Shown: one piece after another, positions 1,012-62,794 of the stretch
Layout of the letters: every line of letters begins with the position of its first letter
Numbering within the stretch: the stretch's first letter is position 1
Assembly: GCA_963794325.1 (NCBI GenBank)
Contig: CAWCDG010000003.1
Span: 320,001 to 384,000 of the forward strand
Reading direction: 5' to 3'
DNA length: 64,000 nucleotides
Source of the DNA: an uncultured delta proteobacterium
GTDB taxonomy: Bacteria; Desulfobacterota; Binatia; Binatales; Binataceae
Made by a program: the position numbers and the translations under genes
The notes under the pieces: model-generated
What the model saw: only the letters and a program-made list of their open reading frames with translations
The model's database searches: none
What the model was told of the DNA's origin: nothing

Positions 1012-3855
1012 ATGCATCGACGCAATTTTTACAGGGCGCGCGGTAACGCATTTCGCGGTTTTATCCTCGTGGCTTCAGTCGCTTTAGTGGCGATGCTAGC
1101 TCAGCGTTTGGGGGCCGCCGCCTCGCAAGACGGGCAGCGTCCCACTGCAACGCAGATGGAGTCTGCCCAAGCGAAATTCCACGTTGTCGATCTGTATGCG
1201 AAACAGCCTTTGAGTTTTGAACGCAACGACGGTCAGACCGACGCCCAGGTGAAATTCATCTCGCGCGGCGATCGCTATACGCTGTTCCTCACTTCGGCCG
1301 AGGCGGTCCTCGCGCTGCGCGCTCCTCACACGGAATCTGGCAAGGCGAACAAGGTCGAATCCGCGATACTGCGCATCAAGCTGGTCGATGCCAACCCCGG
1401 CGCTCGAATCGAGGCGATGGACCAGCTTGCGAGCAAGTCAAATTACTTTGTCGGCAAAGATCCCGGAAAGTGGCATACGAACATTCCCGGCTACGCGCGA
1501 GTGAAGTACCGCAACGTCTATTCGGGAATCGATCTCGTGTACTACGGCGCGAGCCAGCGCCAACTCGAGTATGACTTCGTGATCGCGCCGGGCGCGAACC
1601 CAAATGCGATCGGGCTGCGCTTCGACGGCGCAAGGCAGATGACCCTCAACCACGATGGCGATCTGATTCTGCGGCTCGCCGATGGCGGCGAGGTCATCCA
1701 CCACGCGCCTGTTATCTACCAGGAGCGCGACGGCGTACGCGAAAAAGTAGATGGCAAATTGGTGCTCAAGGGTCAGGATTCGATCGGCTTCCAATTGGCG
1801 GCGTATGACCACGCGCGGCCAGTGTTCATCGATCCAGGACTGAGTTACTCGACCTATCTCGGTGGCACTGGTGGTGACAGCGGCCAGGCTATCGCCGTCG
1901 ATTCGATGGGCTTCGCCTACGTGACGGGGATAACCGAGTCGGCCCCCTTTCCTACTACTATAGGCGCGTACAAGACCACCCCTCCCGGCGGCGGAAACAT
2001 GTTCGTGACCAAGCTGGAAGCTGACGGGTCCGGACCGGTTTACTCGACCTATTTGGGTGGTGATATTCACGACAATTTCGAGGGCGGGTATGGCATCGCC
2101 GTCGATTCCACCGGCAATGCGTACATCACGGGCGACGCCGGGAACAACGGCGATTTCCCCACGACTCTCGGCGCGTTCCAGACCGGCCCGTCCGGCGGCT
2201 ATTCTGACGGGTTCGTCACGAAGCTGAGCCCCGACGGCTCGACGTTGGTCTATTCGACCTATCTCGGCGGCACCTATCATCCAGCCGCAGGTACAACGAA
2301 CGGATATGCCATCGCGATCGATTCCATGGGATTCGCCTACGTCACTGGAAAAACCACGTCGGGCAGCTTTCCCACAACCATGGGAGCGTACCAGACCGCT
2401 AACAACTGCATCAGTTGCACCAACGCCTTCGTAACGAAAATGAAGACCGACGGCACGGGACTGGTTTACTCGACGTACCTCGGTGGCAGTGGCAGTCCTT
2501 ACGGCGGCGACAGCGCCACCGGCATCGCCGTCGATTCCTCGGGGAATGCCTATGTAGGGGGGACCGCCAACTCGTCTGATTTTCCCAAGACTACTGGAGC
2601 GTACCGCACTACCAATTCCGGCTTTTCAGATGCGTTCGTGACGAAACTGAAGCCCGATGGCACCGGCTTGGTGTACTCCACTTACTTGGGCGGCAGTCAA
2701 CCTGATATCGGTGAAGGCATCGCCATCGATTCCGCCGGCAGCGCCTATGTGACGGGTTACACCGGATCGAACGACTTTCCTCACACCAGTGGAGCGTTTC
2801 AAACCGCAATGCGCACCATCTACGGGAACGCGTTCGTGACGAAGTTGACGCCTGACGGCTCGGGACTGGCTTACTCGACCTACCTCGGCGGCTACGGCGA
2901 TACGGCTGATAGCGTCATCAACAGCTACGGCGCCGAGCATGCGTTCGGCATCGCGGTCGATTCCTTCGGCCATGCCTATGTGACGGGAGAAACCTGGTCG
3001 AGCAACTATTTTTGCGCCGGCGCGAACAACCCGATCTCATGTTGTAGCGGCGGCGGAACTGGCACGTGCAACTTTCCCATCACCGGCGATGCGTTCCAGT
3101 CGACCAACAATGCCAGCAATATCGACAATCCAGGACCTAACGCCTTCGTGACGAAAATGAATCTCGACGGCTCGGGCCTGGTTTACTCGACCTACCTTGG
3201 CGGTAGCGCCGCGTACAACGGCGACCGTGGATTTGCCATCGCCGTCGATTCTGTCGGCGACGCCTACGTGACGGGCTCATCGTATTCGACCGACTTCCCC
3301 TTCACCCTGGGGGCATTCCAGACCATGAACAATGGCGGCGGCGGCGACGCCTTCGTTACCAAGCTCATCGTGCCTGCCGGCGCGACTTCGACGCCGACAG
3401 CTACTGCCACCGCAACCAGCTCCGCGACTCCGACCGCGACCGCCAGCGCAACCGCAACCGCTACCGCCACCGCGACGTCGACCTCGACCAGCGCGACGGC
3501 TACCGCAACTCCAACCGCTACCCCGACGCCGGGCGGCGGACGAATCTCGGTGATGCCGAAGCATCTGAACTTGAGCGCGTTACCGTCCGCGACGGCCTCG
3601 GCGAGCATCACGATCCGCAACACCGGTACCGGGCCGCTGATCGTCAACGTTACGGCGCCGAAGCACAATCCGCCGCTCAAGGAGCTCAACGGCGGAAGCC
3701 ACATCGTTATCCCGGCAGGCGGACCAGCCCTTGAGGTGATGATCGTCTACTCGCCGACCAGGAAAGGATCGACCAAGGATTCGATCTCGATAACCAGCGA
3801 CGATCGCACCCACAAGAAAGCGATCAAGATGAAGATCGTCGGCAAGTCGAAATAG
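1012..3855 (+). CDS. Secreted SBBP (beta-propeller) repeat protein with T/A-rich linker and C-terminal Ig-like domain
   Basis: N-terminal hydrophobic signal; PLSFERNDGQ...YDFVIAPGA N-domain; about 7 repeats of YSTYLGG...IAVDSxGxAYVTG...AFVTKL; (TA)n linker; SITIRNTGTG Ig-like tail. Confidence 0.85.
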   Translation: MHRRNFYRARGNAFRGFILVASVALVAMLAQRLGAAASQDGQRPTATQMESAQAKFHVVDLYAKQPLSFERNDGQTDAQVKFISRGDRYTLFLTSAEAVLALRAPHTESGKANKVESAILRIKLVDANPGARIEAMDQLASKSNYFVGKDPGKWHTNIPGYARVKYRNVYSGIDLVYYGASQRQLEYDFVIAPGANPNAIGLRFDGARQMTLNHDGDLILRLADGGEVIHHAPVIYQERDGVREKVDGKLVLKGQDSIGFQLAAYDHARPVFIDPGLSYSTYLGGTGGDSGQAIAVDSMGFAYVTGITESAPFPTTIGAYKTTPPGGGNMFVTKLEADGSGPVYSTYLGGDIHDNFEGGYGIAVDSTGNAYITGDAGNNGDFPTTLGAFQTGPSGGYSDGFVTKLSPDGSTLVYSTYLGGTYHPAAGTTNGYAIAIDSMGFAYVTGKTTSGSFPTTMGAYQTANNCISCTNAFVTKMKTDGTGLVYSTYLGGSGSPYGGDSATGIAVDSSGNAYVGGTANSSDFPKTTGAYRTTNSGFSDAFVTKLKPDGTGLVYSTYLGGSQPDIGEGIAIDSAGSAYVTGYTGSNDFPHTSGAFQTAMRTIYGNAFVTKLTPDGSGLAYSTYLGGYGDTADSVINSYGAEHAFGIAVDSFGHAYVTGETWSSNYFCAGANNPISCCSGGGTGTCNFPITGDAFQSTNNASNIDNPGPNAFVTKMNLDGSGLVYSTYLGGSAAYNGDRGFAIAVDSVGDAYVTGSSYSTDFPFTLGAFQTMNNGGGGDAFVTKLIVPAGATSTPTATATATSSATPTATASATATATATATSTSTSATATATPTATPTPGGGRISVMPKHLNLSALPSATASASITIRNTGTGPLIVNVTAPKHNPPLKELNGGSHIVIPAGGPALEVMIVYSPTRKGSTKDSISITSDDRTHKKAIKMKIVGKSK

Positions 3856-4481: not shown

Positions 4482-6521
4482 TTGGCGACTGCAGCACAAA
4501 TCAAAGTGAAAAAAGGGAACCAGTCCGACCTGGACCAAACCTGCATCAACGCGATTCGCGTGCTGACTATCGACGCGGTCCAGAAGGCCAACAGCGGCCA
4601 CTGCGGACTGCCGATGGGCATGGCGCCCGCCGCCTACCTGCTCTACACGCGCTTCATGCGCCACAACCCGAAAAATCCGAAATGGTTCGGCCGCGACCGC
4701 TTCGTGCTGTCGGCCGGCCACGGCTCGATGCTGCTCTACAGCATTCTCTATCTCGCCGGCTACGACATCTCGCTCGACGACATCAAGCAGTTCCGCCAGC
4801 TCGGCAGCCGAACCCCCGGCCATCCCGAGCATTGGTGCGTCCCCGGCGTCGAGACTACCACCGGCCCGCTCGGCCAGGGCGTCGGCAACGCGGTGGGCAT
4901 GGCCTTGGCGGCGAAGCATCTCGAGGCGCGTTTCGAGCGCGACAACTCGGGCCTGTTCGACCATCGCATCTTCGGCATCTGCAGCGACGGCGATCTGATG
5001 GAAGGAGTCGCCAGTGAGGCGGCGTCGATCGCGGGGCATCTCGGGCTCGGCAATATCATTTTTCTGTACGACGACAACCACGTGACTATCGACGGGCACA
5101 CGGAGCTCAGCTTCGACGAGGATGTGGTCAAACGCTTCGACGCTTACAAGTGGCATACGCAGGACGTGGCGGACGCGAACGACCTCGGCGCATTGTCGAA
5201 GGCGATTGAAAATGGAATCGCGGAGACCGGCCGGCCGTCATTGATTCGGGTCCACTCGATCATCGGCTACGGCAGCCCGCACAAGCAGGGCACCTCAGCC
5301 GCGCATAGCAATCCGCTCGGCGTCGAAGAGGTCAAGCTGACCAAGGAATTCTACAAGTATCCAACCGAACCGCCATTTTTTGTTCCCGACGACGCGCTCG
5401 CGCACTTTCGCGAATGCGTCGAGCGCGGCGCGGAACAAGAGCAGGATTGGAGCGCGAAGTTCGGGACCTACGCCAAAAAGAATTCCTCCCTGGCCGGCGA
5501 GTTTCAGTCAACGCTCGCGAAAGAGCTGCCCGCGGGATGGGACGCTGAACTGCCGGTCTTCACGCCCAAGGACAGCCTCGCGACTCGAGTATCAGCCTCG
5601 CAGGCCGAGGCCTCCATCGCGAAAAAAGTCTGGAACCTGTTCGGCGGCTCCGCCGATTTGAACGAATCCACTTTCACCGACATCAAGGACGGCGGCGATT
5701 TCGAGCGCGGCCACTTCGACGGGCGCAATCCGCATTTCGGCATCCGCGAGCACGGCATGTGCTCCATCCTCAACGGCATCGCGCTGCACGGCGGGTTCAT
5801 CCCGTATGGTTCGAGCTTCTTGTGCTTCACCGACTACGCGCGTCCGTCGATTCGGCTCGCGGCGCTGATGGAAATCCAGGTGGTATTTGTGTTCACCCAT
5901 GATTCGATCGGCGTCGGCGAGGACGGCCCGACCCACGAGCCGATCGAACAGCTGTCGTCGTTGCGCGCGATTCCGCATCTCACCGTGATTCGTCCAGGCG
6001 ATGCGAACGAGGCGGTCGAGGCGTGGCGCACCACCATGACGCATACCGAAGGCCCGGTGCTGCTCGCGCTCTCGCGCCAGAAAGTGCCGACGCTCGATCG
6101 CACCAAGCTGGCGCCCGCCAGCGGCGCACGGCGCGGTGGATACGTCATTACCGAGACGCAAGGACGTCCCGCGGAAATAATTTTGATAGGCGCGGGATCG
6201 GAGCTGTCGCTGGTCGTCGATGCGAAAGCAAAACTCGAAGATAAGGGCAAAGCGGTCCGCGTCGTGAGCATGCCCAGCGAAAATATTTTTGAAAAGCAGG
6301 ATCAGGCTTATCGCGACTCCGTGCTGCCGCCGAATATTCGCCGCCGACTGGCCGTGGAAGCGGGCGCGCCGATGTCGTGGTACCGATGGGTCGGGCTCGA
6401 CGGCGATATTCTCGGGATGACGACTTACGGCGCGTCGGGCAAATCCGAAGACGTGATGAAGCATTTCGGTTTCACTGTGGACAACGTCGTCGAGCGCGCA
6501 CTGAAATTGCTCGCGCGCTAA
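4482..6521 (+). CDS. tkt: Transketolase
   Basis: DRFVLSAGHGSMLLYS, TTGPLGQG, SDGDLMEG (TPP motif), THDSIGVGEDGPTHEP. Confidence 0.97.
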   Translation: MATAAQIKVKKGNQSDLDQTCINAIRVLTIDAVQKANSGHCGLPMGMAPAAYLLYTRFMRHNPKNPKWFGRDRFVLSAGHGSMLLYSILYLAGYDISLDDIKQFRQLGSRTPGHPEHWCVPGVETTTGPLGQGVGNAVGMALAAKHLEARFERDNSGLFDHRIFGICSDGDLMEGVASEAASIAGHLGLGNIIFLYDDNHVTIDGHTELSFDEDVVKRFDAYKWHTQDVADANDLGALSKAIENGIAETGRPSLIRVHSIIGYGSPHKQGTSAAHSNPLGVEEVKLTKEFYKYPTEPPFFVPDDALAHFRECVERGAEQEQDWSAKFGTYAKKNSSLAGEFQSTLAKELPAGWDAELPVFTPKDSLATRVSASQAEASIAKKVWNLFGGSADLNESTFTDIKDGGDFERGHFDGRNPHFGIREHGMCSILNGIALHGGFIPYGSSFLCFTDYARPSIRLAALMEIQVVFVFTHDSIGVGEDGPTHEPIEQLSSLRAIPHLTVIRPGDANEAVEAWRTTMTHTEGPVLLALSRQKVPTLDRTKLAPASGARRGGYVITETQGRPAEIILIGAGSELSLVVDAKAKLEDKGKAVRVVSMPSENIFEKQDQAYRDSVLPPNIRRRLAVEAGAPMSWYRWVGLDGDILGMTTYGASGKSEDVMKHFGFTVDNVVERALKLLAR

Positions 6522-6559
6522 AGCGCTCGACCGAATTATCAACCAGGAGCGAGCGAACA

Positions 6560-9412
6560 ATGGCCGCCGAAAATCCACTAAAGCAGTTGGAGCGGTTTGG
6601 ACAGGCCGTATGGCTCGATTACATACGCCGTCATCTGCTCACGTCCCCCGAGTTTCGCCGCATGCTCGACGAGGACGGCCTCAAGGGCATGACCTCCAAT
6701 CCGACGATCTTCGAAAAGGCGATCGCCGGGTCCACCGACTACGACGATCAGCTCAAGCAACTCGCGCCCACCAAAAAAAGCGTCGACGAAATTTACGATG
6801 CGCTGTCGATGCAGGATATAAAGATGGCCGCCGACGCGTTCCGCCCGCTCTACGACAAGAGCGGCGGCATCCACGGCTACATCAGCTATGAAGTCTCGCC
6901 GACCCTGGCCAACGACACCGACGGAACCATCGCGGCGGCGCGGCGCTACTGGTCTGCGCTCGAGCGGCCCAATGTGCTGATCAAGGTCCCGTCGACGCCC
7001 GCGGGTCTGCCTGCGATCGAGCAGCTGATTTCCGAAGGGATCAACGTCAACGTGACGCTGATGTTTTCGATGAAGCATTACGACAGCGTCGCCGAGGCGT
7101 TTGTCCGCGGCCTCGAACGCCGGCTCAAGGCGAACAAGTCGATCGACAAGGTATGGTCGGTCGCCAGTGTCTTCGTCAGCCGCGTCGAGACTCTCGTCGA
7201 TCGCAAACTCGAGGACAAACTGAAGGCATCGCCGAACGAGGCGGTCGCTGCGCTGATCGGCACGTCGGCCGTCGCGAACTCGCGGCTCATCTACCAGCGC
7301 TACAAGGAAATTTTCCAAGGCAGTCGGTTCAAGGACGTGCTCGCGAAAGGCGGGCGTCCGCAATGGCCGCTATGGGCCAGCACTGGCACCAAGAATCACG
7401 CCTACAGCGACGTCAAGTACGTCGAGGAACTTGTCGGCCCCGACACCGTTGACACGATGCCGCCGGCGACGATGGATGCGTTCCGCGATCACGGCAAGCC
7501 GCGCGCGTCGCTCGAAGAGGGCCTCGATGAGGCTCGCGAGACCGTAAAGCGGCTGGCGGCCGTCGGGATCGATCTGATCGAGGTCGGCGAGGAATTGCAG
7601 AAAGAGGGCGTCGAGTCGTTTGCGCAGTCGTTCCAGGATTTGAGCGCGGTAATCAAAGGTCGGCGCGCGGCAATCGTCGATGGCGCGCAGGACAAGCAGA
7701 CAATCACTGCGACCGGGTACGAATCGCAGGTCAGCAGTGCATACAAGGATCTCGACAAGAGCGAATTTCCCGCGCGGCTGTGGAAGAAGGACGCCGCGCT
7801 CTGGTCGAAAGACACTGCGGCACAGCAGGCAATCAAGAAGGGGCTTGGCTTTCTGAACGTTCCCGATATTACGGCCGAGCGGGTGAAAGATCTCACGTCA
7901 TTTGTCGATGAGGTTCGAAATGCCGGCTTCCGCGATGTCGTGCTGCTCGGGATGGGCGGTTCGTCGCAGAGCGCGGAGCTGTTCGCGACGACATTTTCGA
8001 GCGCGCCGGGTTATCCGAAGCTTCACGTGCTCGATACGACAGTCCCCGAAACGATCCGCGCGCTCGATCGCAACATCGACATCACCAAGACTTTTTTCGT
8101 CGTCGCGAGCAAAACCGGTGAGACTATCGAAACCTTGTCTCACTTCAGCGCGTTCTTCGATCGCGTCAAGGCGAAGTCGAAGAATCCGGCGGGATCGCAT
8201 TTCGCCGCGATTACTGATCCGGGCACCAGGCTCGCCTCCATCGCGAAGGAAAATAAATTCCGCCGCGTGTTCCTGAATCCTCCCGACATCGTGGGCTGCT
8301 ATTCGGTCCTGTCTTATTTCGGGCTGGCGCCCGCCGCGCTGATTGGGGTGGACGTGGCCACTATCATCGATCGAGCGGTTCGGATGACGCATAGCTCCGC
8401 GGGATGCGTGCGGGTCGAGGAAAATCTCGGCGTGAGTTTGGGAGCGGCTCTGGGAGCGCTCAAGAAAGCGGGGCGCGACAAGGTCACGTTTATAATTTCG
8501 CCGCCGATCAGTGCGTTCGGACTGTGGGTCGAGCAGTTGATCGCTGAGAGCACCGGCAAGAACGGCATCGCGATCGTGCCGGTTTGCGACGAGCCTTCGG
8601 TCGCCCCGAAGTCCTACGGCAAGGACCGCGTGTTCGTTTACCTGAAGCTCGACAAGGGCGCAGATGCCGCGCAGGACGCGGCGTTCGAATCGATCAAGAA
8701 GGCCAACATCCCGACGGTGCAAATCACATTGCCGGAAAAAATCGACCTCGGCGAAGAATTCATGCGCTGGGAGATCGCCTCGGCGACTGCCGCTTCCGTA
8801 ATCGGCGTCGATCCGTTCGCTCAGCCAGGAGTTCAGGAGAGTAAGGACAACACCGCCCGAATCCTCGCCGAGTTCGCGCGCAGCAAGAAATTTCCCGGAC
8901 AGATGCCGATTGCCGAGAATGGCAAGCTCGCGCTTTTTTCAGGAGGTGCTGCGGGCGATGCGATGAAGGGCGCGCGCGATTTTCGCGCGATGCTCGGCGC
9001 GTTCTTCAATCTCGCAAAGCCCGGCGATTACTTCGCCACGATGGCGTACGTGTCGTCCAATCCGACCGTGGACAAAACGATCGCGGCGATTCGCAAAGCG
9101 GTCGTCGGGCGCTACGGTATCGCGACCACCTTCGGCTACGGCCCGCGCTGCCTGCATTCGACTGGACAGTTGCATAAGGGCGGTCCGAACACCGGTCTGT
9201 TCCTGCAGCTCACGCAGGACCATCGCGATACGGTTGCTATCCCCGGTGCGCCGTACGATTTCGCTCAACTCAACCAGGCGCAGTATCTTGGAGATTTCCA
9301 GTCACTCGAGGCGCATGGACGCCGCGTGATTCGCGTCCATCTGGCGGGCGGCGATCCGATCGAGGCGATCGAAGCTCTTGGCAAGGAGATTGTTGCAGCG
9401 ATCGCCAGGTAA
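6560..9412 (+). CDS. tal: Bifunctional transaldolase / glucose-6-phosphate isomerase fusion
   Basis: ATG at 6560 after AGGAG. TAL motifs GMTSNPTIF, LIKVP, NVNVTLMFS, WASTGTK. PGI motifs GMGGSS, EQLIAESTGK, LHSTGQLHKGGP. Confidence 0.93.
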   Translation: MAAENPLKQLERFGQAVWLDYIRRHLLTSPEFRRMLDEDGLKGMTSNPTIFEKAIAGSTDYDDQLKQLAPTKKSVDEIYDALSMQDIKMAADAFRPLYDKSGGIHGYISYEVSPTLANDTDGTIAAARRYWSALERPNVLIKVPSTPAGLPAIEQLISEGINVNVTLMFSMKHYDSVAEAFVRGLERRLKANKSIDKVWSVASVFVSRVETLVDRKLEDKLKASPNEAVAALIGTSAVANSRLIYQRYKEIFQGSRFKDVLAKGGRPQWPLWASTGTKNHAYSDVKYVEELVGPDTVDTMPPATMDAFRDHGKPRASLEEGLDEARETVKRLAAVGIDLIEVGEELQKEGVESFAQSFQDLSAVIKGRRAAIVDGAQDKQTITATGYESQVSSAYKDLDKSEFPARLWKKDAALWSKDTAAQQAIKKGLGFLNVPDITAERVKDLTSFVDEVRNAGFRDVVLLGMGGSSQSAELFATTFSSAPGYPKLHVLDTTVPETIRALDRNIDITKTFFVVASKTGETIETLSHFSAFFDRVKAKSKNPAGSHFAAITDPGTRLASIAKENKFRRVFLNPPDIVGCYSVLSYFGLAPAALIGVDVATIIDRAVRMTHSSAGCVRVEENLGVSLGAALGALKKAGRDKVTFIISPPISAFGLWVEQLIAESTGKNGIAIVPVCDEPSVAPKSYGKDRVFVYLKLDKGADAAQDAAFESIKKANIPTVQITLPEKIDLGEEFMRWEIASATAASVIGVDPFAQPGVQESKDNTARILAEFARSKKFPGQMPIAENGKLALFSGGAAGDAMKGARDFRAMLGAFFNLAKPGDYFATMAYVSSNPTVDKTIAAIRKAVVGRYGIATTFGYGPRCLHSTGQLHKGGPNTGLFLQLTQDHRDTVAIPGAPYDFAQLNQAQYLGDFQSLEAHGRRVIRVHLAGGDPIEAIEALGKEIVAAIAR

Positions 9413-18142: not shown

Positions 18143-19231
<1,089 letters not shown>

Positions 19232-19236
19232 ATTCG

Positions 19237-19920
19237 ATGGCGGCGATCAAGCGTCTGTTCGGAAGTTTTCGCTCCTCACGCGGCAAGAAGTCCGAATCGG
19301 AATCGCATTCGTCGATTGAATGGGTGGTGGCGGGACTCGGGAATCCCGGCGAAGAGTACTCGCGTTCCCGCCACAACGCGGGATTCATGACAATCGATCG
19401 AATCGCGAAAGCCAAAGGCGTCGAGTTGAGCCGCCGCAGGTTCAAAGGCATCACCGCTGAAATCACCTTGGCCGAAAAGCCCGCGATTCTCGTCAAGCCC
19501 CAGACCTTTTACAATCTGAGCGGCGAATGCATTTCCGATCTGCTCGGATATTTCAAAATTACCACCAGCCATTTGATCGTAATTCATGACGAGCTCGATC
19601 TCGAAGCGGGGCGGCTCAGAATGAAGCAGGGCGGAGGGGACGCCGGCAACCGCGGCGTTCGTTCAATCGCGGAGTCGCTCGGAACCACCGACTTCATTCG
19701 CGTCAGAATTGGAATCGGCCGCCCGCCCGGCTTCACAACCGAAATGGAACCCGGCCGCCAACCGAAGACCGAAGAAAATAAGGACTACCTGCTGCGCCCG
19801 ATGACGGCCGCCGAAAGACAGGCAATTGCGCCGCTCCTCGACCGCGCTGCGAACGCAGTCGAAGCAATCGCCGCAGACGGCCTCGAAGCCGCGATGAACC
19901 GCTACAACCAACGCAGCTAA
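19237..19920 (+). CDS. pth: Peptidyl-tRNA hydrolase
   Basis: GLGNPG, RHNAGF, KPQTFYNLSG, HDELDL, RVRIGIGRP. Confidence 0.92.
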   Translation: MAAIKRLFGSFRSSRGKKSESESHSSIEWVVAGLGNPGEEYSRSRHNAGFMTIDRIAKAKGVELSRRRFKGITAEITLAEKPAILVKPQTFYNLSGECISDLLGYFKITTSHLIVIHDELDLEAGRLRMKQGGGDAGNRGVRSIAESLGTTDFIRVRIGIGRPPGFTTEMEPGRQPKTEENKDYLLRPMTAAERQAIAPLLDRAANAVEAIAADGLEAAMNRYNQRS

Positions 19921-41378: not shown

Positions 41379-41407
41379 TTGACACCCTATTCAAGGATTG
41401 GAATACT
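41379..41407 (+). promoter_or_regulatory. Sigma70-like promoter with overlapping palindrome upstream of the carotenoid oxygenase
   Basis: TTGACA (41379-84), 17-nt spacer, AATACT; TATTC-N8-GAATA at 41388-41405. Confidence 0.5.
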
Positions 41408-41445
41408 CTAATTCCCCAGCACGAAAAGGAAGTCGAGGTGACGAC

Positions 41446-42813
41446 ATGCACGACTCAGCCAATCCCTACCTGACCGGCAACTACGCTCCGTGGCGCGAGG
41501 AAACTGACGCGTTCGACCTCGAGATCGACGGCGAGCTGCCGCGCGAGCTCAACGGCGCCCTTTATCGCATCGGCCCCAACCCGCACTTCAAGCCGCCCGG
41601 CCGCTACCATTGGTTCGACGGCGACGGGATGGTCCATGCGTTCATCCTGCGCGACGGCCGCGCCGCCTATCGCAATCGCTACGTCCGCACTGACGGCCTC
41701 AAGGCTGAGATGAAAGCGGGGCGCGCGCTGTTCGGGGGATTGCTCGAGCAGCCGCGCGAGATGACCCCCGATCTGCCGCCATTCAAGAACGCTGCGAACA
41801 CCAATATCATCGGCTACGCCAACCGCTTGCTCGCGCTGTTCGAAGCCGCGTCGCCGCACGAGCTCCAACCGTTGACGCTCGAAACCATCGGCCTGTTCGA
41901 TTTCGGCGGCAAGTTGACCGGTCCCGTCACGGCGCATCCGAAGTTCGATCCCGTCACCGGCGACTTGCTGTTCTTTGCCTACCAACCGTTTCCGCCGTAC
42001 GCGACTTGGTACCGCGCGAGTCGCGACGGCAAGCTCCTCGAGTCGCGCCCAATCGATACCGGACTGCCCGTGATGATGCATGATTTTATCGCGACCGATA
42101 ACTATGCGATCTTTTTCGTGTGCCCGTCCGTGTTCCATCTCGAGAACGCGGCGGCGGGGAAGCCGCTCTTCAATTGGGAGCCGCAGCATGGAACCAAAAT
42201 CGGCGTGATGAACCGTAAGACCGGCGACGTGAAATGGTTTCAGGACGAAGCGTTCTTCATCTTTCATTTCCTGAACGCGTACGAAGAGCACGGGTCGCTG
42301 GTCGTCGATGGATGCAGAATGGAGTCGCTCGACATGAGCGGCAATTCATTTGGCGGCAAGCCTGCGATGCCGTGGCGATGGAATCTGAATCTTAAAGAGG
42401 GCTCGATGCGCCAGCGGCAAATCGATGACCTACCCTCCGAATTTCCGCGCTTCGACGAGCGCATCGCCGGCCGCAAGCATCGCTACGGCTACTTCGCCGG
42501 CGGCAATCCGGTATCTCCGCAACATGAGACGAGTTTCAAGGCGCTGCTCAAGCGCGACTACCAGACTGACAAACTCGAAGCTCACGACCTCGGCAAGAAC
42601 TTCGCTCCCGGAGAGCCGGTCTTCGTGCCACGCTCCGCGAAGTCGTCCGAGGACGATGGATGGGTGCTCGCGGTCTGGTATGACGAGGCGCTCAACCGCA
42701 GCGAGATGGTGGTGCTCAACGCGCAGAATTTCGCGGGCGCGCCCGTCGCGAGGATCAAATTGCAGCATCGCGTGCCGTGGGGCTTCCACGGCAACTGGGT
42801 GCCCGCGCAATGA
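41446..42813 (+). CDS. Carotenoid oxygenase / lignostilbene dioxygenase family protein
   Basis: NPYLTGNYAP, HWFDGDGMVH, TAHPK, MMHDF, FHFLNAYE, EFPR, GEPVFVP, GFHGNW (four Fe-binding His). Confidence 0.93.
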   Translation: MHDSANPYLTGNYAPWREETDAFDLEIDGELPRELNGALYRIGPNPHFKPPGRYHWFDGDGMVHAFILRDGRAAYRNRYVRTDGLKAEMKAGRALFGGLLEQPREMTPDLPPFKNAANTNIIGYANRLLALFEAASPHELQPLTLETIGLFDFGGKLTGPVTAHPKFDPVTGDLLFFAYQPFPPYATWYRASRDGKLLESRPIDTGLPVMMHDFIATDNYAIFFVCPSVFHLENAAAGKPLFNWEPQHGTKIGVMNRKTGDVKWFQDEAFFIFHFLNAYEEHGSLVVDGCRMESLDMSGNSFGGKPAMPWRWNLNLKEGSMRQRQIDDLPSEFPRFDERIAGRKHRYGYFAGGNPVSPQHETSFKALLKRDYQTDKLEAHDLGKNFAPGEPVFVPRSAKSSEDDGWVLAVWYDEALNRSEMVVLNAQNFAGAPVARIKLQHRVPWGFHGNWVPAQ

Positions 42814-55952: not shown

Positions 55953-56825
55953 ATGGCCGATAGCATCATCGGGCCGACTTCGCATTACTTTTATTCGCAG
56001 CGGCTAAAGCTGCACTACGTCGATTGGGGCAATCCCGACAAGCCGCTGCTCGTGCTCGTGCACGGCGGCCGCGACCATTGTCGCAACTGGGATTGGGTCG
56101 CGCTCGATCTGCGCAAGCATTTTCATATCATCGCGCCCGACCTGCGCGGCCACGGCGACTCCGACTGGGCGGTCGGCAGCGGCTATTCGATGATCGATTA
56201 CGTTCTCGACTTGTCGCAGCTAATGAGCGCGGTTTCGAGCGAGCCTGCCACGCTCATCGGACATTCACTCGGCGGCGGAATCGTTTTGCAATACACCGGG
56301 ACGCATCCGGAAGCGGTAAAGCGCGTCGTTTCGATCGAAGGGATGGGTCCGCCACCCGGGATGATCAAGGACACGCCCGCCTACGATCGCATGAACAACT
56401 GGATCGGCCAGATGCAGACCCTCGCGCGGCGCAAGGTCCGCGAGTACCCGTCGATCGAGGAAGCTCTCGCGCGCATGATCGAGGCCAATCCGCATCTCAG
56501 CCGCGATCAGGCGCGTCACCTCACGATTTGGGGAATTCGGCGTAACGAGAACGGCACCTACTCCTGGAAGTTCGACAACTACGTTCACGCCACGTCGCCG
56601 TACATGTTCAACAATCGTGATGCGCGCGAAATCTGGGGGCGCATCACGTGCGCGACGCTGCTCATTCGCGGCACTGAATCGTGGGCGGGCGATTGGGTCA
56701 AGGACGGGCGCATCCAGGCGTTCAAGCACGCGGAATCGGTGACGGTCGACAAAGCCGGACATTGGGTGCATCACGATCGCCTCGACGAATTCCTGGCAGT
56801 CGCGCATCGCTTCCTCGGCGTGTAG
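55953..56825 (+). CDS. Alpha/beta fold hydrolase
   Basis: LVHGGRDH, DLRGHGDS, GHSLGG, AGHWVHHD. Confidence 0.9.
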   Translation: MADSIIGPTSHYFYSQRLKLHYVDWGNPDKPLLVLVHGGRDHCRNWDWVALDLRKHFHIIAPDLRGHGDSDWAVGSGYSMIDYVLDLSQLMSAVSSEPATLIGHSLGGGIVLQYTGTHPEAVKRVVSIEGMGPPPGMIKDTPAYDRMNNWIGQMQTLARRKVREYPSIEEALARMIEANPHLSRDQARHLTIWGIRRNENGTYSWKFDNYVHATSPYMFNNRDAREIWGRITCATLLIRGTESWAGDWVKDGRIQAFKHAESVTVDKAGHWVHHDRLDEFLAVAHRFLGV

Positions 56826-56842
56826 CGACATCGGCGCCACTC

Positions 56843-58906
56843 ATGCGACGACCTACACTTTCGCTGCGCACCGATCAGTTCGAATACGTTCAGCTGATTC
56901 TGCTGGCGGTCACCGTCGGCATTCTCGCGGCGCTCGGAAATCTGGGCTTTCGCCAACTGATCGAATTTTTCTCGTGGCTGTTTCGCGCGGTCGAGTGGAA
57001 CGCGCTCGGAATCCAGCACGCCGGATGGCATCGAGCGCTGATCCCGGCGATCCTGCTGAGCGGCGGCGTCGCGATCCTGTTGCTTGACCGCATCTTCCCG
57101 GGAGACGTGCTCGGTTACGGCTTTCCGAATTTCCTCGAAATGGTCAATCTCGGCACCGCTCGACTCAAGCGCCGTTGGATCTTCGTCAAAGCCGCGGGAG
57201 CCGCGCTTTCATTGGGCGCGGGCGCGTCGGTCGGACGCGAAGGTCCGATCGCGCAGGTCGGGGGTGCGATCGGCTCGACTATCGCGCAGCTCAGAAAATT
57301 GTCGCCGGACCGTGCCAAGGTGCTGATCGCTGCAGGAGCGGGTGCCGGTATCGCTACAACCTTCAATGCGCCCATTGGCGGCCTGATGTTCGCGCAGGAA
57401 GTCGTCCTGCTCGGCCACACCGAAATCGCCAATCTCACATTGCTGATCATCGCCACCTTCACCGCGGTTATTACTTCGCGCGCGATTCTCGGCAATGCGG
57501 TCGTCTTCATCACGCCCGAATTCGTGCTGCGCAGCTACTGGGAGATGGCGACCTATGCGCTCATGGGCGCGGCGCTCGGCGCACTGGCCGCAGGCTACAT
57601 CCGATTCTTCAACGCCACCGAGGCATGGTTTCGCCGGCTCGACCTACCCGTCTGGGTGAAGCTCGAGGCGGGACTTGCCGTCGTCGGCGTAATTGCAATC
57701 TGGCTTCCGCAAAACTTGTCCGACGGGTATCCGGTGATCAACCGCGCGATGGCCGGCGAGTTCGGCATCGGAATGCTGGCAGCGATGGCCTGCGCGAAAA
57801 TCTTCGCCAGCAGCGTCTCGCTCGGATGCGGTGCTCCGGGAGGCTCCTTCGGACCGACGTTCTTCATCGGCACGATGGCCGGCGGCCTGTTCCAGCGCAT
57901 CTCTTCGCTGGTAATTCCTTCGCTGACCGGACCTCGCGGATCGTACGCGCTGGTAGGGCTCGGTGCGTTTCTGGCTGGTACCACGCACGCGCCACTGACT
58001 GCGCTGTTCCTGCTCTGGGAGATGACGCACAGCGATACGATTGCGTTGCCCTCGATGATCGCGACGATCACGGCTCTGGTCGTGGCTCGCGCGATCGAAA
58101 CCGAATCGATCGACGAGTTCCGTCTCGCGCGCGCGGGCAAAAAGCTGCAGATTGGCCGCGAGCGGTTGGCGCTCACGCTCATACCAGTCAGCGCCGTCGT
58201 AACCAAGAACGTGACGATGGTGTCTGAAAACACTTCGCTCACGGAAGTTCTGCGCACCGCGGGTGAGACCGCCCAATCGACGTTGCCGGTCGTCGATAGC
58301 GACGGTAACTTCGTCGGGACGATCGTGGTCCGTGATCTGTTGTCGATGATCGGCGGCGGTCAAGAGCTTGGCCCGCTCGTCAACGCATTCGACATTTGCA
58401 ATACGCATGCTCCCACGGTGCCGCTCGACGCGAACCTCGATGAGGCGAGCCAGCTGATGGAGCACGACGGCCTCGACGAGATTCCGGTCGTCGATCGCAC
58501 CACACTGCGGTTTCTTGGGCTCGTGACGGGCAGGCATATTGCGCAAGCGCTCAATCGCGTGTCGGTGTCACTCTCGACGCTCGCGACCCGCGACTCAAAC
58601 ATTTACTGGGCGACCGGCTATCGCGTGACGCGGCTCACGGTTCCCGCTACCGCGGCGGGGAAAACTGTGCGTCAGATCGATCCGCGCGCGCGATTCAGCG
58701 TCACGGTTCTGGCTGTTCAGGATGCGAACAATCCGGACGGCGGTTTCGCGCCGATCACTCCTGACCTCCCATTGAAAGCAGGCGACGAATTGATCGCGGC
58801 AGGACGTCCGCAAGATATTCGGCAATTCACAGCTGAATTGGACAGCGTGGAACCTGTCGGCGCGGCGCGCGCCTCATCTCAGGCGAGCGGATCGGGAAAG
58901 ACGTAG
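56843..58906 (+). CDS. ClC-family chloride channel/antiporter with CBS pair and TrkA-C domain
   Basis: GREGP, AGAGAGIATTFNAPIGG, GGSFGP, HAPLT; two CBS domains; C-terminal RCK_C-like domain. Confidence 0.92.
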   Translation: MRRPTLSLRTDQFEYVQLILLAVTVGILAALGNLGFRQLIEFFSWLFRAVEWNALGIQHAGWHRALIPAILLSGGVAILLLDRIFPGDVLGYGFPNFLEMVNLGTARLKRRWIFVKAAGAALSLGAGASVGREGPIAQVGGAIGSTIAQLRKLSPDRAKVLIAAGAGAGIATTFNAPIGGLMFAQEVVLLGHTEIANLTLLIIATFTAVITSRAILGNAVVFITPEFVLRSYWEMATYALMGAALGALAAGYIRFFNATEAWFRRLDLPVWVKLEAGLAVVGVIAIWLPQNLSDGYPVINRAMAGEFGIGMLAAMACAKIFASSVSLGCGAPGGSFGPTFFIGTMAGGLFQRISSLVIPSLTGPRGSYALVGLGAFLAGTTHAPLTALFLLWEMTHSDTIALPSMIATITALVVARAIETESIDEFRLARAGKKLQIGRERLALTLIPVSAVVTKNVTMVSENTSLTEVLRTAGETAQSTLPVVDSDGNFVGTIVVRDLLSMIGGGQELGPLVNAFDICNTHAPTVPLDANLDEASQLMEHDGLDEIPVVDRTTLRFLGLVTGRHIAQALNRVSVSLSTLATRDSNIYWATGYRVTRLTVPATAAGKTVRQIDPRARFSVTVLAVQDANNPDGGFAPITPDLPLKAGDELIAAGRPQDIRQFTAELDSVEPVGAARASSQASGSGKT

Positions 58907-59538
58907 GGACGCGCACGTCCCGCTCGAATTTCTGCGCACATTTCCTCGACCGTCTTTACGTCGTTGTCGAATTCAGTCGCGACGGTCATGAACCATTTTC
59001 CAGTGGCGAAATGAGCGTCGCTGCCACCGACCGCGGTCAGCCCGAGCTTGAGTGCCGCGTCCTCGGCTCGCCGATTCTCCTCGACCGAGTTCTGACCGTT
59101 CAAAACTTCGACCGCCCCAATCGCCGCGCCATGACGGCTCAGCAGCGCATCCAGCCGCACTCCGTAGCCCGAATCGCGAAATGGATGCGCCGGAATTGCG
59201 ACGCCGCCCTCGTGATGAATCACTTCAATCAGGCTGTCGCTCTTGAGCATCCGCGCCGTCAGATCGAATCGCCGCATCACTTCTTCGTTCACCCCGAACA
59301 GCAGCAGATGGCCGAGGTCGGTGTCGGCCTCAATCCCTCTGAAGATGGCGATTTGAAATCGTTCCGCGAGTTCCGCGTACAGTCGCTCGACGTCGGCATC
59401 GATCGGGAACAGCCGATGCTCTGTAAAACAGATGGCGCCGAGGCCCCGTCCCGAACTCTTCGCGAATTCAAGATACTGCTCGGGTGCGACGTTGGAGTCT
59501 GACGAGAGCCTCGTGTGGACGTGGAGGTCGGCGATCAT
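58879..59538 (-). CDS. PHP-domain metal-dependent phosphoesterase
   Basis: DLHVHT, FTEH, AHPFR, GGSDAH. Confidence 0.88.
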   Translation of the reverse strand: MIADLHVHTRLSSDSNVAPEQYLEFAKSSGRGLGAICFTEHRLFPIDADVERLYAELAERFQIAIFRGIEADTDLGHLLLFGVNEEVMRRFDLTARMLKSDSLIEVIHHEGGVAIPAHPFRDSGYGVRLDALLSRHGAAIGAVEVLNGQNSVEENRRAEDAALKLGLTAVGGSDAHFATGKWFMTVATEFDNDVKTVEEMCAEIRAGRARPYVFPDPLA

Positions 59539-59548
59539 CAACAGGACT

Positions 59549-61069
59549 TTACGGCTCGGCGAAGAAGTTGTCGCGCACCTGAATGTGGTCCTCGATCGAG
59601 AAAATTCGCGCCACCAGGAAAATCTGGGTCTGCACCATCAGGCGATCAGCTTCGGTCGGCACGGTTCCCCATAAGATGATCGTGTCACCGTCCATTTTGA
59701 AGCGCACTGAGCTGTAGCCCTGCATGTCCAGCGCCCGGCGAAGCGCCATCTCCCGCGGCGTTGTGTGCGGCGGATCAGCCGGCTCACCCGGGACGGGCGG
59801 CGCAGGATTCGGCTCTGACGGCACCGATCCATAGTCGGGTCCGGTATCGCCGTCGGAAGGCTGCGGCTGCGACGAATGAAAAATCAGGTAGCCCATCAGG
59901 AAAAATCCGCCGACCACCAACGCCATCAGTCGCGCCGAATGCCGCCGGCGCCGCCGCTCGTGAAAAATCGGCCCCGGAAAATCGTGCGGCGCGGCAACGT
60001 CGTCGAGCATGATCGTCTGCGCCTCGGGCGTCGCGCCGCGATCTGTCCCCGACAATCGTCCGGTCACGTCGGCGGCGCAGAACGAGCAGAAGTTCGAATC
60101 CACCGGGATGCTTCGGCCGCATCGCGGGCACTCAGTGTCGATCGCGTTGCTCAGCATCGTCGGCGCCGACGCGTGCTGCTCTTTGGACTTGACGCCGCTC
60201 AGGGGCAGCTTGAGTTGTGGACGCGCGGCCCGGCCGGAGGAATTGCGCTGCGGCGCAGCCATCGGCGTCCCTGACTTGATCGCCATCAGCCGCTGTCTGA
60301 ATTCCACGGCGTCAGCAACGCGCAAAGCCACGTCGTACTTGAGGGCCTGGTCGACCACTTCGCATAGCGCGGGAGTGACCTCAGGACATAGCGATCGCAA
60401 CGGAGGAAAACTGAACGGCGGCTCGAGCGCGGGGTCGCGGCCCGACAGCGCATGATGCATCGTGGCGCCCAGTGCATACAGGTCCGATCGGAACTCGACC
60501 TTGCCGCGATATTGTTCCGGCGGCGCGTAGCCTTGCGTGCCGATCATCGTCGCGTTGCTGAGCGGCTGGAACAGTCGCGCGATTCCAAAGTCGATGAGCT
60601 TGACCTGCTCCGACGGCGTTAGCATCACGTTCGACGGCTTCAGGTCGCGATAGATCACCGGCGGTTCCAGGTTGTGCAGATACTCGAGCGTGTCGAGAAC
60701 CTGCAGCGCCACGTCGATAACCTCGCTCTCGGGAAGCTGGCCGCCGGCGCTCTGGAGTTTCTGCTCCAGCGTTATCCCGCTGATGTACTCCATGACGAGA
60801 TAGTGATGGTTCTCATCGCTGAAGCGATCGAACACGCGCGGGATATGTTCGTTGCTGAGTTGCGCCAGCATGTCGGCTTCGCGCTGAAACGCCGCGACCG
60901 CCTGCTTCTGAGTTTCGGGGCTGGTGAAAGTATCGACCATCTCGGCCAGCGCACACTCGCGCGCGGCGAGCCGCAAGTCCTCGGCCAGATAGACGAGCTT
61001 CATCCCGCCGCCGCCAAGCGGCTTCATCACGCGGTAACGTCCGCCAATGATCGTGTTGGGCGCAATCAT
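59549..61069 (-). CDS. Ser/Thr protein kinase with zinc ribbon, TM helix and C-terminal BON-like domain
   Basis: YRDLKPSN, DFG, GYAPPEQ, SDLYALG; CPRC..CSFC; TM; IILWGTVP...IEDHIQV. Confidence 0.9.
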   Translation of the reverse strand: MIAPNTIIGGRYRVMKPLGGGGMKLVYLAEDLRLAARECALAEMVDTFTSPETQKQAVAAFQREADMLAQLSNEHIPRVFDRFSDENHHYLVMEYISGITLEQKLQSAGGQLPESEVIDVALQVLDTLEYLHNLEPPVIYRDLKPSNVMLTPSEQVKLIDFGIARLFQPLSNATMIGTQGYAPPEQYRGKVEFRSDLYALGATMHHALSGRDPALEPPFSFPPLRSLCPEVTPALCEVVDQALKYDVALRVADAVEFRQRLMAIKSGTPMAAPQRNSSGRAARPQLKLPLSGVKSKEQHASAPTMLSNAIDTECPRCGRSIPVDSNFCSFCAADVTGRLSGTDRGATPEAQTIMLDDVAAPHDFPGPIFHERRRRRHSARLMALVVGGFFLMGYLIFHSSQPQPSDGDTGPDYGSVPSEPNPAPPVPGEPADPPHTTPREMALRRALDMQGYSSVRFKMDGDTIILWGTVPTEADRLMVQTQIFLVARIFSIEDHIQVRDNFFAEP

Positions 61070-61128: not shown

Positions 61129-61479
61129 TCATCGCGCCAGCATGTCTTCCCGGGGTGTTCCGGAGAAGGCCGCATTAGCCCCACATATTATATGGATGAG
61201 GATGCCAAATGGCGGCCCCATCCCGTACGCTATCGACACGAAAAAGAACCACATGATGCCCTTGAAGGGCTTGCCGCGGTAGATGTGCCCGACGCCCGGA
61301 ACGATGCTGAGCACGAGCGCGATCACCGGGTTGAATCCCGAACCTCTGTGCAACAGCGATAAACGTGTCGTCGGCGCGCCGCACGATTTGCAATAGCTCG
61401 CCTCGGCGACGACGATCGGCTGGCCGCATCGCGAACAGAACCTCGGTTTTTCGAAATCAGCGTCAGCCACGGAAGACAA
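61129..61479 (-). CDS. Zinc-ribbon + TM2-like membrane protein
   Basis: CSRC..CKSC followed by NPVIALVLSIVPGVGHIY. Confidence 0.8.
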   Translation of the reverse strand: MSSVADADFEKPRFCSRCGQPIVVAEASYCKSCGAPTTRLSLLHRGSGFNPVIALVLSIVPGVGHIYRGKPFKGIMWFFFVSIAYGMGPPFGILIHIICGANAAFSGTPREDMLAR

Positions 61480-62794
61480 ACTGCGCGTCGCCGAAGCGTA
61501 CAGCCTCGCCGTCGTTCACCTTGGTTGGCTCGGTCACGCGCCGATTACCGACGAACGTCCCGTTCTGACTGTTCAGGTCGCGCACCACAAAGGCGCCGTT
61601 GGAATTCTCGATACTCGCGTGATGCCTCGAGATCGAGGAATGGCTGACCACGATTTCATTGTCCAGCGCGCGCCCGATGTGGGTAACCGCGCCGGGACGC
61701 ACGGGATACGCCTGCCCGGACGCGTCGATCAGGCTCGGCCCATCAACTTTGGCATTTGCTCCCGCCAGCCGTGTCGCGATATGCGCAGGATTCACCGCGT
61801 CGGATGCGAGCGAGGCCTGCTGGCGCGCGGGCGACGACGACCCGCGCAGATGGAACTTCATTTCGTAACCGCCGATGTTGACCCGATCGCCGTCGTGCAG
61901 ATCTACAGTCTCGATTCGCTTGCCGTTGACGAACGTACCGTCCTGCACCGCAAGATTCCTGATGACGTAATCAGCGCCGCGCCGCTCGATTACCGCGTGC
62001 CGTTGCTGCACCGACGGGTCGCCGAACAAGCCGACCGGGTTTTCTTCGGCGCGCCCAATCGTCGCGCGCGCTCCTTCGATTCGGTACTGGCGTCCGCGCA
62101 AGCGTCCCTGCTCGACGGTGACCCACGCGGCCTTGGTCATCTCTTGTACCAGCCCGATGAACAGTCCGATCGCAAGGCCGGTTATCGCCTCGCCAAAAAA
62201 TCGCGACGCCAGCCCGCCGCCGACGACCGATCCGATCAAATCAAATGCGATTCCGCCGACCGCTCCGCCAACCAGTCCACCGACCGCTCCCTTGGGCACG
62301 TTTTCCATCGTGAGCGTTGCCAATCCCACACCGGCGCCAACCAGCGCGCCATCGATGGCCCATCCCAACAGTCTTGCGATTATGAGAACGACGATCGATC
62401 CCGAAACCAGCTCACCATTCGGACTGAACCCGACGCCGCCAACTTGAAGGACCAGGTTGAAGACGTAGTTCCCGAGGTAAGTGGAGAGCAGCGACAGCAG
62501 CGCGCAAATACCGAAGCCGCGGAGGAATCGACGCTTGGCCTCCGGCGTCACGCGAACCTCTGAGGTGTCCACCGCCGTGATGAACGCGCCGATCGCTCCG
62601 GCCGCGATCGCCGCCGAGATGTAGTACGCGATCAAATCCCCGGTCGTCTGCGCCTCGCCCAGATGCGAATTGTGCGAAGCCAGTTCGACCGGGAGCCATC
62701 CGATCGCGCCACCCACCAGGCCCGCGAGAGCCTTGAAGGTCAATTCGCGCCGGTTCAGAGAATCGCTTTTCAGTAGAGCTAGAGGTGAGTCCAC
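61463..62794 (-). CDS. Multi-TM membrane protein with two FHA domains
   Basis: Gly-rich TM bundle; IGR...HA...GTFVNG and IGR...SRHHA...SQNGTF FHA domains. Confidence 0.9.
   Translation of the reverse strand: MDSPLALLKSDSLNRRELTFKALAGLVGGAIGWLPVELASHNSHLGEAQTTGDLIAYYISAAIAAGAIGAFITAVDTSEVRVTPEAKRRFLRGFGICALLSLLSTYLGNYVFNLVLQVGGVGFSPNGELVSGSIVVLIIARLLGWAIDGALVGAGVGLATLTMENVPKGAVGGLVGGAVGGIAFDLIGSVVGGGLASRFFGEAITGLAIGLFIGLVQEMTKAAWVTVEQGRLRGRQYRIEGARATIGRAEENPVGLFGDPSVQQRHAVIERRGADYVIRNLAVQDGTFVNGKRIETVDLHDGDRVNIGGYEMKFHLRGSSSPARQQASLASDAVNPAHIATRLAGANAKVDGPSLIDASGQAYPVRPGAVTHIGRALDNEIVVSHSSISRHHASIENSNGAFVVRDLNSQNGTFVGNRRVTEPTKVNDGEAVRFGDAQFVFRG

Follow-up and report, generated by a model that had tools for sequence, protein, structure and literature searches.

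A putative WNK-like relocation of the catalytic lysine in a clade of PknB-like receptor kinases seen mainly in Binataceae-type genomes

WNKs are treated as the sole functional protein kinase family without the beta3 lysine, and in the excerpts of the literature on which we draw throughout, Kannan et al. 2007 present Wnk as the only functional eukaryotic protein kinase family without K72 and point to an analogous shift in a subfamily of small-molecule kinases (PMC1821047). WNKs are active with a lysine in beta2, in the glycine loop, and a cysteine at the beta3 position (PMC12599244, PMC1821047). A glycine-loop lysine is also used by POMK (SGK196), which has lost the alphaC glutamate and has DLD for DFG (PMC12599244), and the CAK-chloro subfamily of small-molecule kinases, which is not a protein kinase group, carries Met72 together with Arg55 and has lost the glutamate to Phe (PMC1821047). 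In bacteria, seven pseudokinase families are listed by a 2025 review and by the 2025 preprint of a bacterial kinase atlas, namely ActPs1-3, GLW, CP1, DYD and DLHK (PMC12599244; 10.1101/2025.01.12.632604), the sequence definition of a pseudokinase being the loss of the beta3 lysine, the HRD aspartate or the DFG aspartate (PMC12599244). These systems are compared here with a Ser/Thr kinase gene at 59549..61069 on the reverse strand of a 64,000-nucleotide stretch of DNA from an uncultured delta proteobacterium of the Binataceae (assembly GCA_963794325.1, contig CAWCDG010000003.1, positions 320,001 to 384,000), the whole of which is called the window below. The reading favoured, at a probability of roughly 0.6, is that the gene product would be an active PknB-like receptor Ser/Thr kinase in which the lysine that anchors adenosine triphosphate (ATP) has moved from beta3 to the neighbouring beta2.

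The gene was recognised from the list of open reading frames (ORFs) and its translation, from Pfam and from homologs covering about its full length; the frame is open throughout and encodes a 506-residue receptor-type Hanks kinase. The kinase domain (residues 1-270; 60260..61069, reverse strand) was delimited with Pfam, an AlphaFold2 model and Foldseek, and Pfam Pkinase (PF00069) matches residues 12-213 with an E-value of 1.4e-35. A preliminary description of this DNA had singled out positions 60930-61030, corresponding to kinase residues 14-47, as holding a lysine at the third glycine of GxGxxG and an alanine in place of the beta3 lysine, and both assignments were borne out by the translation and by alignment to StkP. 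Residues 18-27 read LGGGGMKLVY and residues 38-44 read ECALAEM. Lys24 (codon AAG, 60998..61000, reverse strand), which begins beta2 and is the candidate for the relocated catalytic lysine, directly follows G19-G20-G21-G22-M23; in the phmmer alignment to StkP (9ruk, E 9.4e-36) it stands opposite the sixth residue of G-R-G-G-M-A, the third-Gly position, which we take to be position 55 in the numbering of PKA. Ala42 (codon GCC, 60944..60946, reverse strand) lies within C39-A40-L41-A42-E43-M44 at the VAIK-Lys position of beta3, and faces the Lys of V-A-V-K in the same alignment. The equivalence with the WNK position rests on this alignment together with published statements (PMC12599244, PMC1821047). 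AlphaFold2 modelling of residues 1-290 from a 40-row alignment gave a mean predicted local distance difference test score (pLDDT) of 90.7 and a predicted template modelling score (pTM) of 0.88, with beta1 at 12-21, beta2 at 24-31, beta3 at 37-45 and alphaC at 51-69, such that Lys24 opens beta2 and Ala42 is placed inside beta3.

The other catalytic elements, which had been called intact, are all present in the sequence. These are the alphaC glutamate Glu64 (codon 60878..60880), the catalytic loop Y-R-D-L-K-P-S-N at residues 140-147 with the HRD-type Asp142, Lys144 and Asn147 (60629..60652), and the activation segment at residues 160-185 running from DFG (160-162) to APPE (182-185) and including Thr174 and Thr178 (60515..60592), all on the reverse strand. 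From the canonical triad the VAIK lysine of beta3 is missing, being Ala42; the two aspartates, Asp142 of the HRD-type motif and Asp160 of DFG, are both there. The WNK-like arrangement proposed in the preliminary description, with a lysine at the third-Gly position, a small residue at the beta3 lysine position and the remaining core intact, is thus what the locus holds.

The proposal had been made to depend on the two changes occurring together in homologs. Among the 120 closest homologs, which share 57-96% identity over about the full length and of which several are named Candidatus Binatus or Binataceae, Lys24 and Ala42 are both found in 118, the remaining two being truncated in that region. 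A full HMMER search with residues 1-290 against 1.84 billion representatives, from which the best 150 were taken, provided 199 kinase stretches. Their glycine-loop/beta3 pairs were Lys/Ala in 61, Lys/Ser in 1, Lys/Lys in 1, Gly/Lys in 76, Ser/Lys in 14, Ala/Lys in 14 and other pairs in 14, with the columns not covered in 18; in the Lys/Lys stretch the domain is degenerate, and both the catalytic Asp and the catalytic Lys are missing. The swapped full-length representatives (n=57) are 50-81% identical to the query (median 58%) and the canonical ones (n=106) 27-54%. A further set of 107 stretches contained 47 swapped and 58 canonical domains (Gly, Ser or Ala with Lys), one degenerate Lys/Lys, one Ser/Arg and one truncated stretch. 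The only two Lys/Lys stretches found are therefore both degenerate domains without catalytic residues. Where the catalytic residues are kept, a glycine-loop lysine was never seen with a beta3 lysine, and a beta3 Ala or Ser was seen only with a glycine-loop lysine. No glycine-loop lysine occurred in canonical domains, either in 100 canonical relatives, which were sorted as such by their beta3 Lys and hence have it in 100 of 100, or in the 58 of the further set.

That the swap stems from gene decay or from an error of sequencing, assembly or reading frame has a vanishingly small probability on these data. This reading is refuted by the intact 506-residue frame, by the presence of both residues in 118 of 120 homologs, which come from numerous separate assemblies, by a gene order kept in five loci, and by an excess of synonymous over replacement codon differences against each of the five orthologous loci (for example 78 versus 52). 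Of six loci, five have AAG as the Lys24 codon and one has AAA.

Conservation across the swapped clade was followed in 250 full-length domains, which are related sequences, many of them mutually close, spanning at least 57 clusters at 50% identity. Lys24 is found in all 250 and Ala42 in 249, with Ser, another small residue, in the remaining one. Glu64, Lys144, Asn147, Asp160, Gly162 and Glu185 are each present in 250 of 250, Phe161 in 249, Asp142 in 247, and Thr174 and Thr178 in 245 each. In the 100 canonical relatives the catalytic residues are conserved no more tightly than this. Activity is the favoured prediction because the remaining catalytic residues hardly vary in a clade whose identity to the query goes down to 50%, and further because synonymous differences exceed replacements and an FHA protein is encoded alongside the kinase. 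That a glycine-loop lysine is able to serve catalysis has its precedents in WNKs and POMK, as far as the cited excerpts describe them. By analogy with WNK1, Lys24 at the third-Gly position would contact the phosphates of ATP and pair with Glu64 of alphaC, and Ala42, with its small side chain, would leave space for Lys24. The kinase probably autophosphorylates Thr174 and Thr178 of its activation loop.

The swapped kinase domain is fused to varied C-terminal modules, including TPR, Sel1, FGE-sulfatase, SPOR, PQQ propeller, NfeD, BON with PDZ, and TIR. Examples of such fusions are P0129, P0137, P0187, P0142, P0169, P0151, P0154, P0217 and P0214; in the last, the TIR-fused member, the HRD aspartate is also gone (Gly).

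The origin of the swap was addressed in trees from which both trait columns had been masked. The first tree comprised 158 of 200 rows, stretches filling fewer than 235 of the 265 query columns having been dropped, and its 58 swapped rows, the query included, made up one side of a branch with a Shimodaira-Hasegawa-like approximate likelihood ratio test (SH-aLRT) support of 99. The second tree had 210 rows, kinases from loci L001-L040 with hits of at least 235 residues having been added, and here 63 swapped rows formed one clade (SH-aLRT 99) whose sister, joined at a support of 92, consisted of 9 canonical rows. Among the sister rows are Candidatus Binatus soli (L008), Binatus sp. (L009), a metagenome-assembled genome (MAG) of the Binataceae (L011) and a 'Deltaproteobacteria' MAG (L007). 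The sister motif is GGGGMG...CA[IV]KEM versus GGGGMK...CALAEM in the clade, and the difference lies exactly at these two motifs. The swap arose once, in a paralog of the canonical Binataceae kinases, and every sampled descendant retains it.

In other respects the query resembles bacterial kinases. Its best matches by phmmer in the PDB are StkP, Stk1, PknB and PknA, and Foldseek of the kinase domain placed Stk1 on top (1.1e-20, TM 0.75) with Stk1, PknB and PknA as the closest folds and WNK3 at rank 41 (E 1.7e-16, 25% identity). The best NCBIfam model was PknB_PASTA_kin at 5e-59, under the cut-off of that equivalog, and no PASTA repeats were found in the kinase by Pfam or NCBIfam. When the 40-residue N-lobe was searched by phmmer against the PDB, the 16 hits at E up to 10 were bacterial kinases and weak TTBK1/tau matches, with no WNK among them. 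Bacterial kinases have as motifs a glycine-loop Met, a gatekeeper Met, the RF-Phe of alphaC and a poly-Pro G-H loop, the RF-Arg being optional and present in about 50% of bacterial Ser/Thr kinases, in the sections of the source drawn on (10.1101/2025.01.12.632604). The query has all of the former as Met23, Met93 (LVMEY), Phe61 and PPFSFPP at 217-223, and has Ala60 at the RF-Arg position. In alignment A1, Phe61 is invariant, and Met93, Pro218, Phe219, Phe221 and Pro222 are at least 90% conserved. Since the closest relatives in sequence and fold and the nesting of the clade are all bacterial and PknB-like, the WNK-like arrangement appears to be convergent and not inherited. The convergence suggested in the preliminary description thereby gained support both from the PknB-like sequence and fold and from the position of the clade beside canonical Binataceae paralogs in the masked tree.

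A scan of genome contigs, from which 80 of 611 matching stretches were retained, corresponds to 76 loci, and among these listed matches the swap is found in five loci, all from Binataceae or 'delta proteobacterium' MAGs. Locus L035 was initially scored as Ser/Ala; this was an alignment offset, the Lys of its VAVK sitting two residues further on. Named proteins of the swapped clade are mostly from Binatus, Binataceae or 'Deltaproteobacteria bacterium', and a few carry the provisional labels Limnocylindrales, Acidoferrales or Acidoferrum. The swapped clade has so far been seen mainly in Binataceae-type genomes. The canonical sister paralogs are kinase gene pairs about 3 kb apart (L007:4131-8759, L008:4164-8828, L010:2559-7312 and L011:4159-8774), and a gene for an FHA-domain protein is found about 2 kb downstream of the pairs in L007, L008 and L011.

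Several observations weigh against an active kinase. As the swap arose once, the co-occurrence of its two halves is one long-retained event and not repeated independent covariation, and the large counts, which have no exception among domains keeping their catalytic residues, are not independent observations. The median path from the shared ancestor is 0.81 in the swapped clade versus 0.55 in the canonical sister, and this longer path could reflect somewhat relaxed constraint. Three of the 250 clade members are without the HRD aspartate, and one of these three is TIR-fused. Through Ala42 the query also falls under the sequence definition of a pseudokinase (PMC12599244), a definition that in its quoted form takes in the active WNKs as well. 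The longer path, the lost HRD aspartates and the missing beta3 lysine would suit a true pseudokinase, which binds nucleotide or a partner or acts as a conformational switch without phosphotransfer, and in which Lys24 serves binding or structure. Absence of the beta3 lysine is a criterion for the bacterial pseudokinase families, and all seven are described without it at least in part in the available passages (PMC12599244; 10.1101/2025.01.12.632604). In those descriptions, however, the lysine has changed to Arg, Leu or Trp and HRD to GLW or Asn, and most of the families have also lost the HRD aspartate, the DFG aspartate, the alphaC glutamate or the activation loop, whereas the query keeps Asp142, Asp160, Glu64 and a full activation segment and its clade is near-invariant at these places, the activation-loop threonines included. 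A pure scaffold would have no need for a fixed catalytic base, metal ligands and a small residue 42 in a clade diverged to 50% identity. A pseudokinase is for these reasons considered unlikely.

The kinase could alternatively be active with some residue other than Lys24 as the substitute, such as another basic residue (for example Arg37 or Arg63), or without any lysine-glutamate pair. In the clade, Arg37 and Arg63 each reach a conservation of at least 90%, and for ActPs2 and DLHK the parts of the literature used here propose that ATP is bound through arginine. On the stem of the clade, on the other hand, Lys24 alone was altered along with position 42, and it has not varied since (250 of 250); its position is the one that WNK uses, as far as the source excerpt goes (PMC1821047). 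Canonical relatives, too, most often have Arg at position 63 (48 of 100), so that this arginine does not constitute a clade-specific compensation. This alternative is regarded as quite improbable, and the relocated Lys24 is retained as the candidate ATP-anchoring residue of an active kinase.

From its N-terminus to its C-terminus the kinase protein consists of the kinase domain, a zinc ribbon, one transmembrane helix, a Pro-rich linker and a BON-like domain. The Cys4 zinc ribbon (residues 312-335; 60065..60136, reverse strand) was recognised by weak Pfam matches, DUF7575 at 1.1e-4 and Zn_Ribbon_1 at 1.7e-4, both under their curated cut-offs, and its four Cys are nearly invariant among orthologs. 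A hydropathy scan located the single transmembrane helix at about residues 379-399 (59873..59935, reverse strand). It is preceded by an RRRRR cluster, which by the positive-inside rule suggests a cytoplasmic kinase domain and a C-terminus outside the cell. The BON-like domain, at about residues 436-500 (59570..59764, reverse strand) and of alpha-beta-beta-alpha-beta topology, was found by AlphaFold2 and Foldseek. The model of residues 405-506 has a pLDDT of 76.6 overall and of about 90 over the BON-like domain, which best matched the osmoregulator OsmY (8rjx, E 6.8e-4) and more weakly CdsD, DolP and Kbp, which are BON-like or BON proteins (E 0.007-0.07). Pfam BON reached an E-value of 0.14 in the query and about 1e-5 in the relatives P0322 and P0336. 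Judged from the domains and the gene order, the kinase would span the membrane once, with its OsmY-like BON domain outside the cell.

The kinase gene belongs to an apparent operon on the reverse strand. The first gene, at 61463..62794, encodes an FHA membrane protein (Pfam FHA 7e-36 in two stretches; NCBIfam FhaB/FipA-like 1.9e-29; hydropathy). The layout of this protein is unusual: its N-terminal half contains four hydrophobic segments, and the two FHA domains come after them. FHA domains are readers of phosphothreonine, and signalling by the kinase probably proceeds via this co-transcribed two-FHA membrane protein. The second gene (61129..61479, reverse strand) shares 17 nucleotides with the end of the FHA gene and encodes a small zinc-ribbon and TM2-like membrane protein with two hydrophobic segments, for which Pfam Zn_ribbon_NUD was at its curated cut-off and other zinc-ribbon models and TM2 were weak, below theirs. 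Downstream of the kinase gene by 7 nucleotides lies a gene for a PHP-domain metal-dependent phosphoesterase (58879..59541, reverse strand; Pfam PHP and PHP_C; NCBIfam CehA/McbA metallohydrolase 4.4e-21). PknB-type operons usually have a PP2C phosphatase at this place. The PHP protein is a candidate for reversing the phosphorylation and might be the phosphatase of the system. On the forward strand, a gene for a ClC chloride channel or exchanger with a CBS pair and TrkA_C (56681..58906; Pfam Voltage_CLC 3.2e-79, CBS and TrkA_C; NCBIfam ClcB-like 8e-89) converges on this string of genes, its 3' end overlapping the PHP gene by 28 nucleotides. All five orthologous loci (L001-L005) have the FHA, zinc-ribbon and kinase genes in this order, and PHP and ClC follow in the four that have enough flank (L001, L002, L004 and L005). 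This synteny may merely mirror relatedness, all the loci being Binataceae-type MAGs of one family.

A connection with ions or osmotic conditions is hinted at by the adjoining ClC gene and by the OsmY-like domain outside the cell. In WNK1, chloride sits in a pocket formed in part by Leu369, Leu371, Phe283 and Leu299, bound to the main chain of the DLG motif, the L369F substitution abolishes chloride inhibition, and the unusual placement of the lysine may, as the review suggests in the excerpt drawn on, make room for the ion (PMC7606576). The DLG hallmark is absent from the clade, which has DFG with Phe161 in 249 of 250 domains, the state of the chloride-insensitive L369F form of WNK1 as described in that excerpt. 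The chloride sensitivity raised as a question in the preliminary description is for this reason not supported, and since the clade has DFG and not DLG, the ClC gene is only a lead and is not claimed as part of the kinase system. One could still imagine an ion- or osmotic-stress sensor in which relocation of the lysine freed the cleft for a small inhibitory ion, with the OsmY-like BON domain outside and an anion-sensitive site inside acting together with ClC, but this is highly speculative and very improbable. If true, ion gating of kinase activity through relocation of the lysine would be a recurrent solution, reached independently in bacteria and eukaryotes.

No second kinase was found in the window, and the rest of it has ordinary chromosomal content. 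On the forward strand, a 1011-residue ORF at 6377-9412 has transaldolase and phosphoglucose isomerase domains; as listed, it begins within the transketolase ORF (4482-6521), with about 145 nucleotides shared, and translation may in fact start further downstream. A 443-residue ORF at 18589-19920 (forward) has a peptidyl-tRNA hydrolase domain only at residues 246-440, its long N-terminal part giving no Pfam match at E 1e-5. Also on the forward strand are a 947-residue DUF7948 and SBBP beta-propeller protein with an Ig-like end (1012-3855) and an RPE65-type carotenoid oxygenase (41398-42813).

The combination of a beta3 Ala, a glycine-loop Lys and an otherwise intact core is in none of the seven bacterial pseudokinase families as described in the parts of the sources used, whose supplementary family tables lie beyond that scope; CP1 is heterogeneous, and the motif alone does not separate the query from it. 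The full-text literature searched, a coverage that leaves subscription papers and supplementary tables outside, yielded no account of such a swap in a bacterial kinase; the papers and tables outside this coverage may bear on novelty. The clade would accordingly represent a convergent WNK-style relocation of the lysine in PknB-like kinases, previously undescribed in the literature searched. Should the prediction be right, calling bacterial pseudokinases by motif risks giving active enzymes the wrong label.

Like POMK and CAK-chloro, the query has its positive charge shifted from beta3 to the glycine loop; unlike them, it keeps Glu64 and DFG. With WNK1-4 it shares a lysine at PKA position 55, a small residue in beta3 and the retention of the alphaC Glu, the catalytic loop and the activation segment, as given in the excerpts (PMC1821047, PMC12599244). 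It differs from WNKs in having Ala and not Cys at position 42, in being a bacterial receptor kinase with a zinc ribbon, a transmembrane helix and a BON domain, and in nesting among bacterial kinases, which speaks for no common descent with WNK1-4. A second independent relocation to the same position as in WNK would be a clean natural replicate, and the benefit of the relocation, the second-site changes that it needs and its possible link to ion sensing are questions that could then be put in a simple system.

The likeness to PknB, StkP and Stk1 extends over the fold, the catalytic loop, the activation-loop threonines, the Met of the glycine loop, the gatekeeper Met, the alphaC Phe, the poly-Pro G-H loop, the single-pass receptor layout and the operon-linked FHA protein. 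In contrast to these kinases, the query is without the beta3 Lys and has the glycine-loop Lys, and a BON-like domain replaces the PASTA repeats. The canonical Binataceae sister paralogs (for example L008:8001-8828 and L011:8004-8774) are 52-56% identical to it in the kinase domain and have the same bacterial hallmarks, some of them also with an FHA gene nearby, but theirs is a Gly at the third glycine-loop position together with a Lys in beta3. Differing at just these two motifs, the sister paralog is a built-in control for the swapped kinase.

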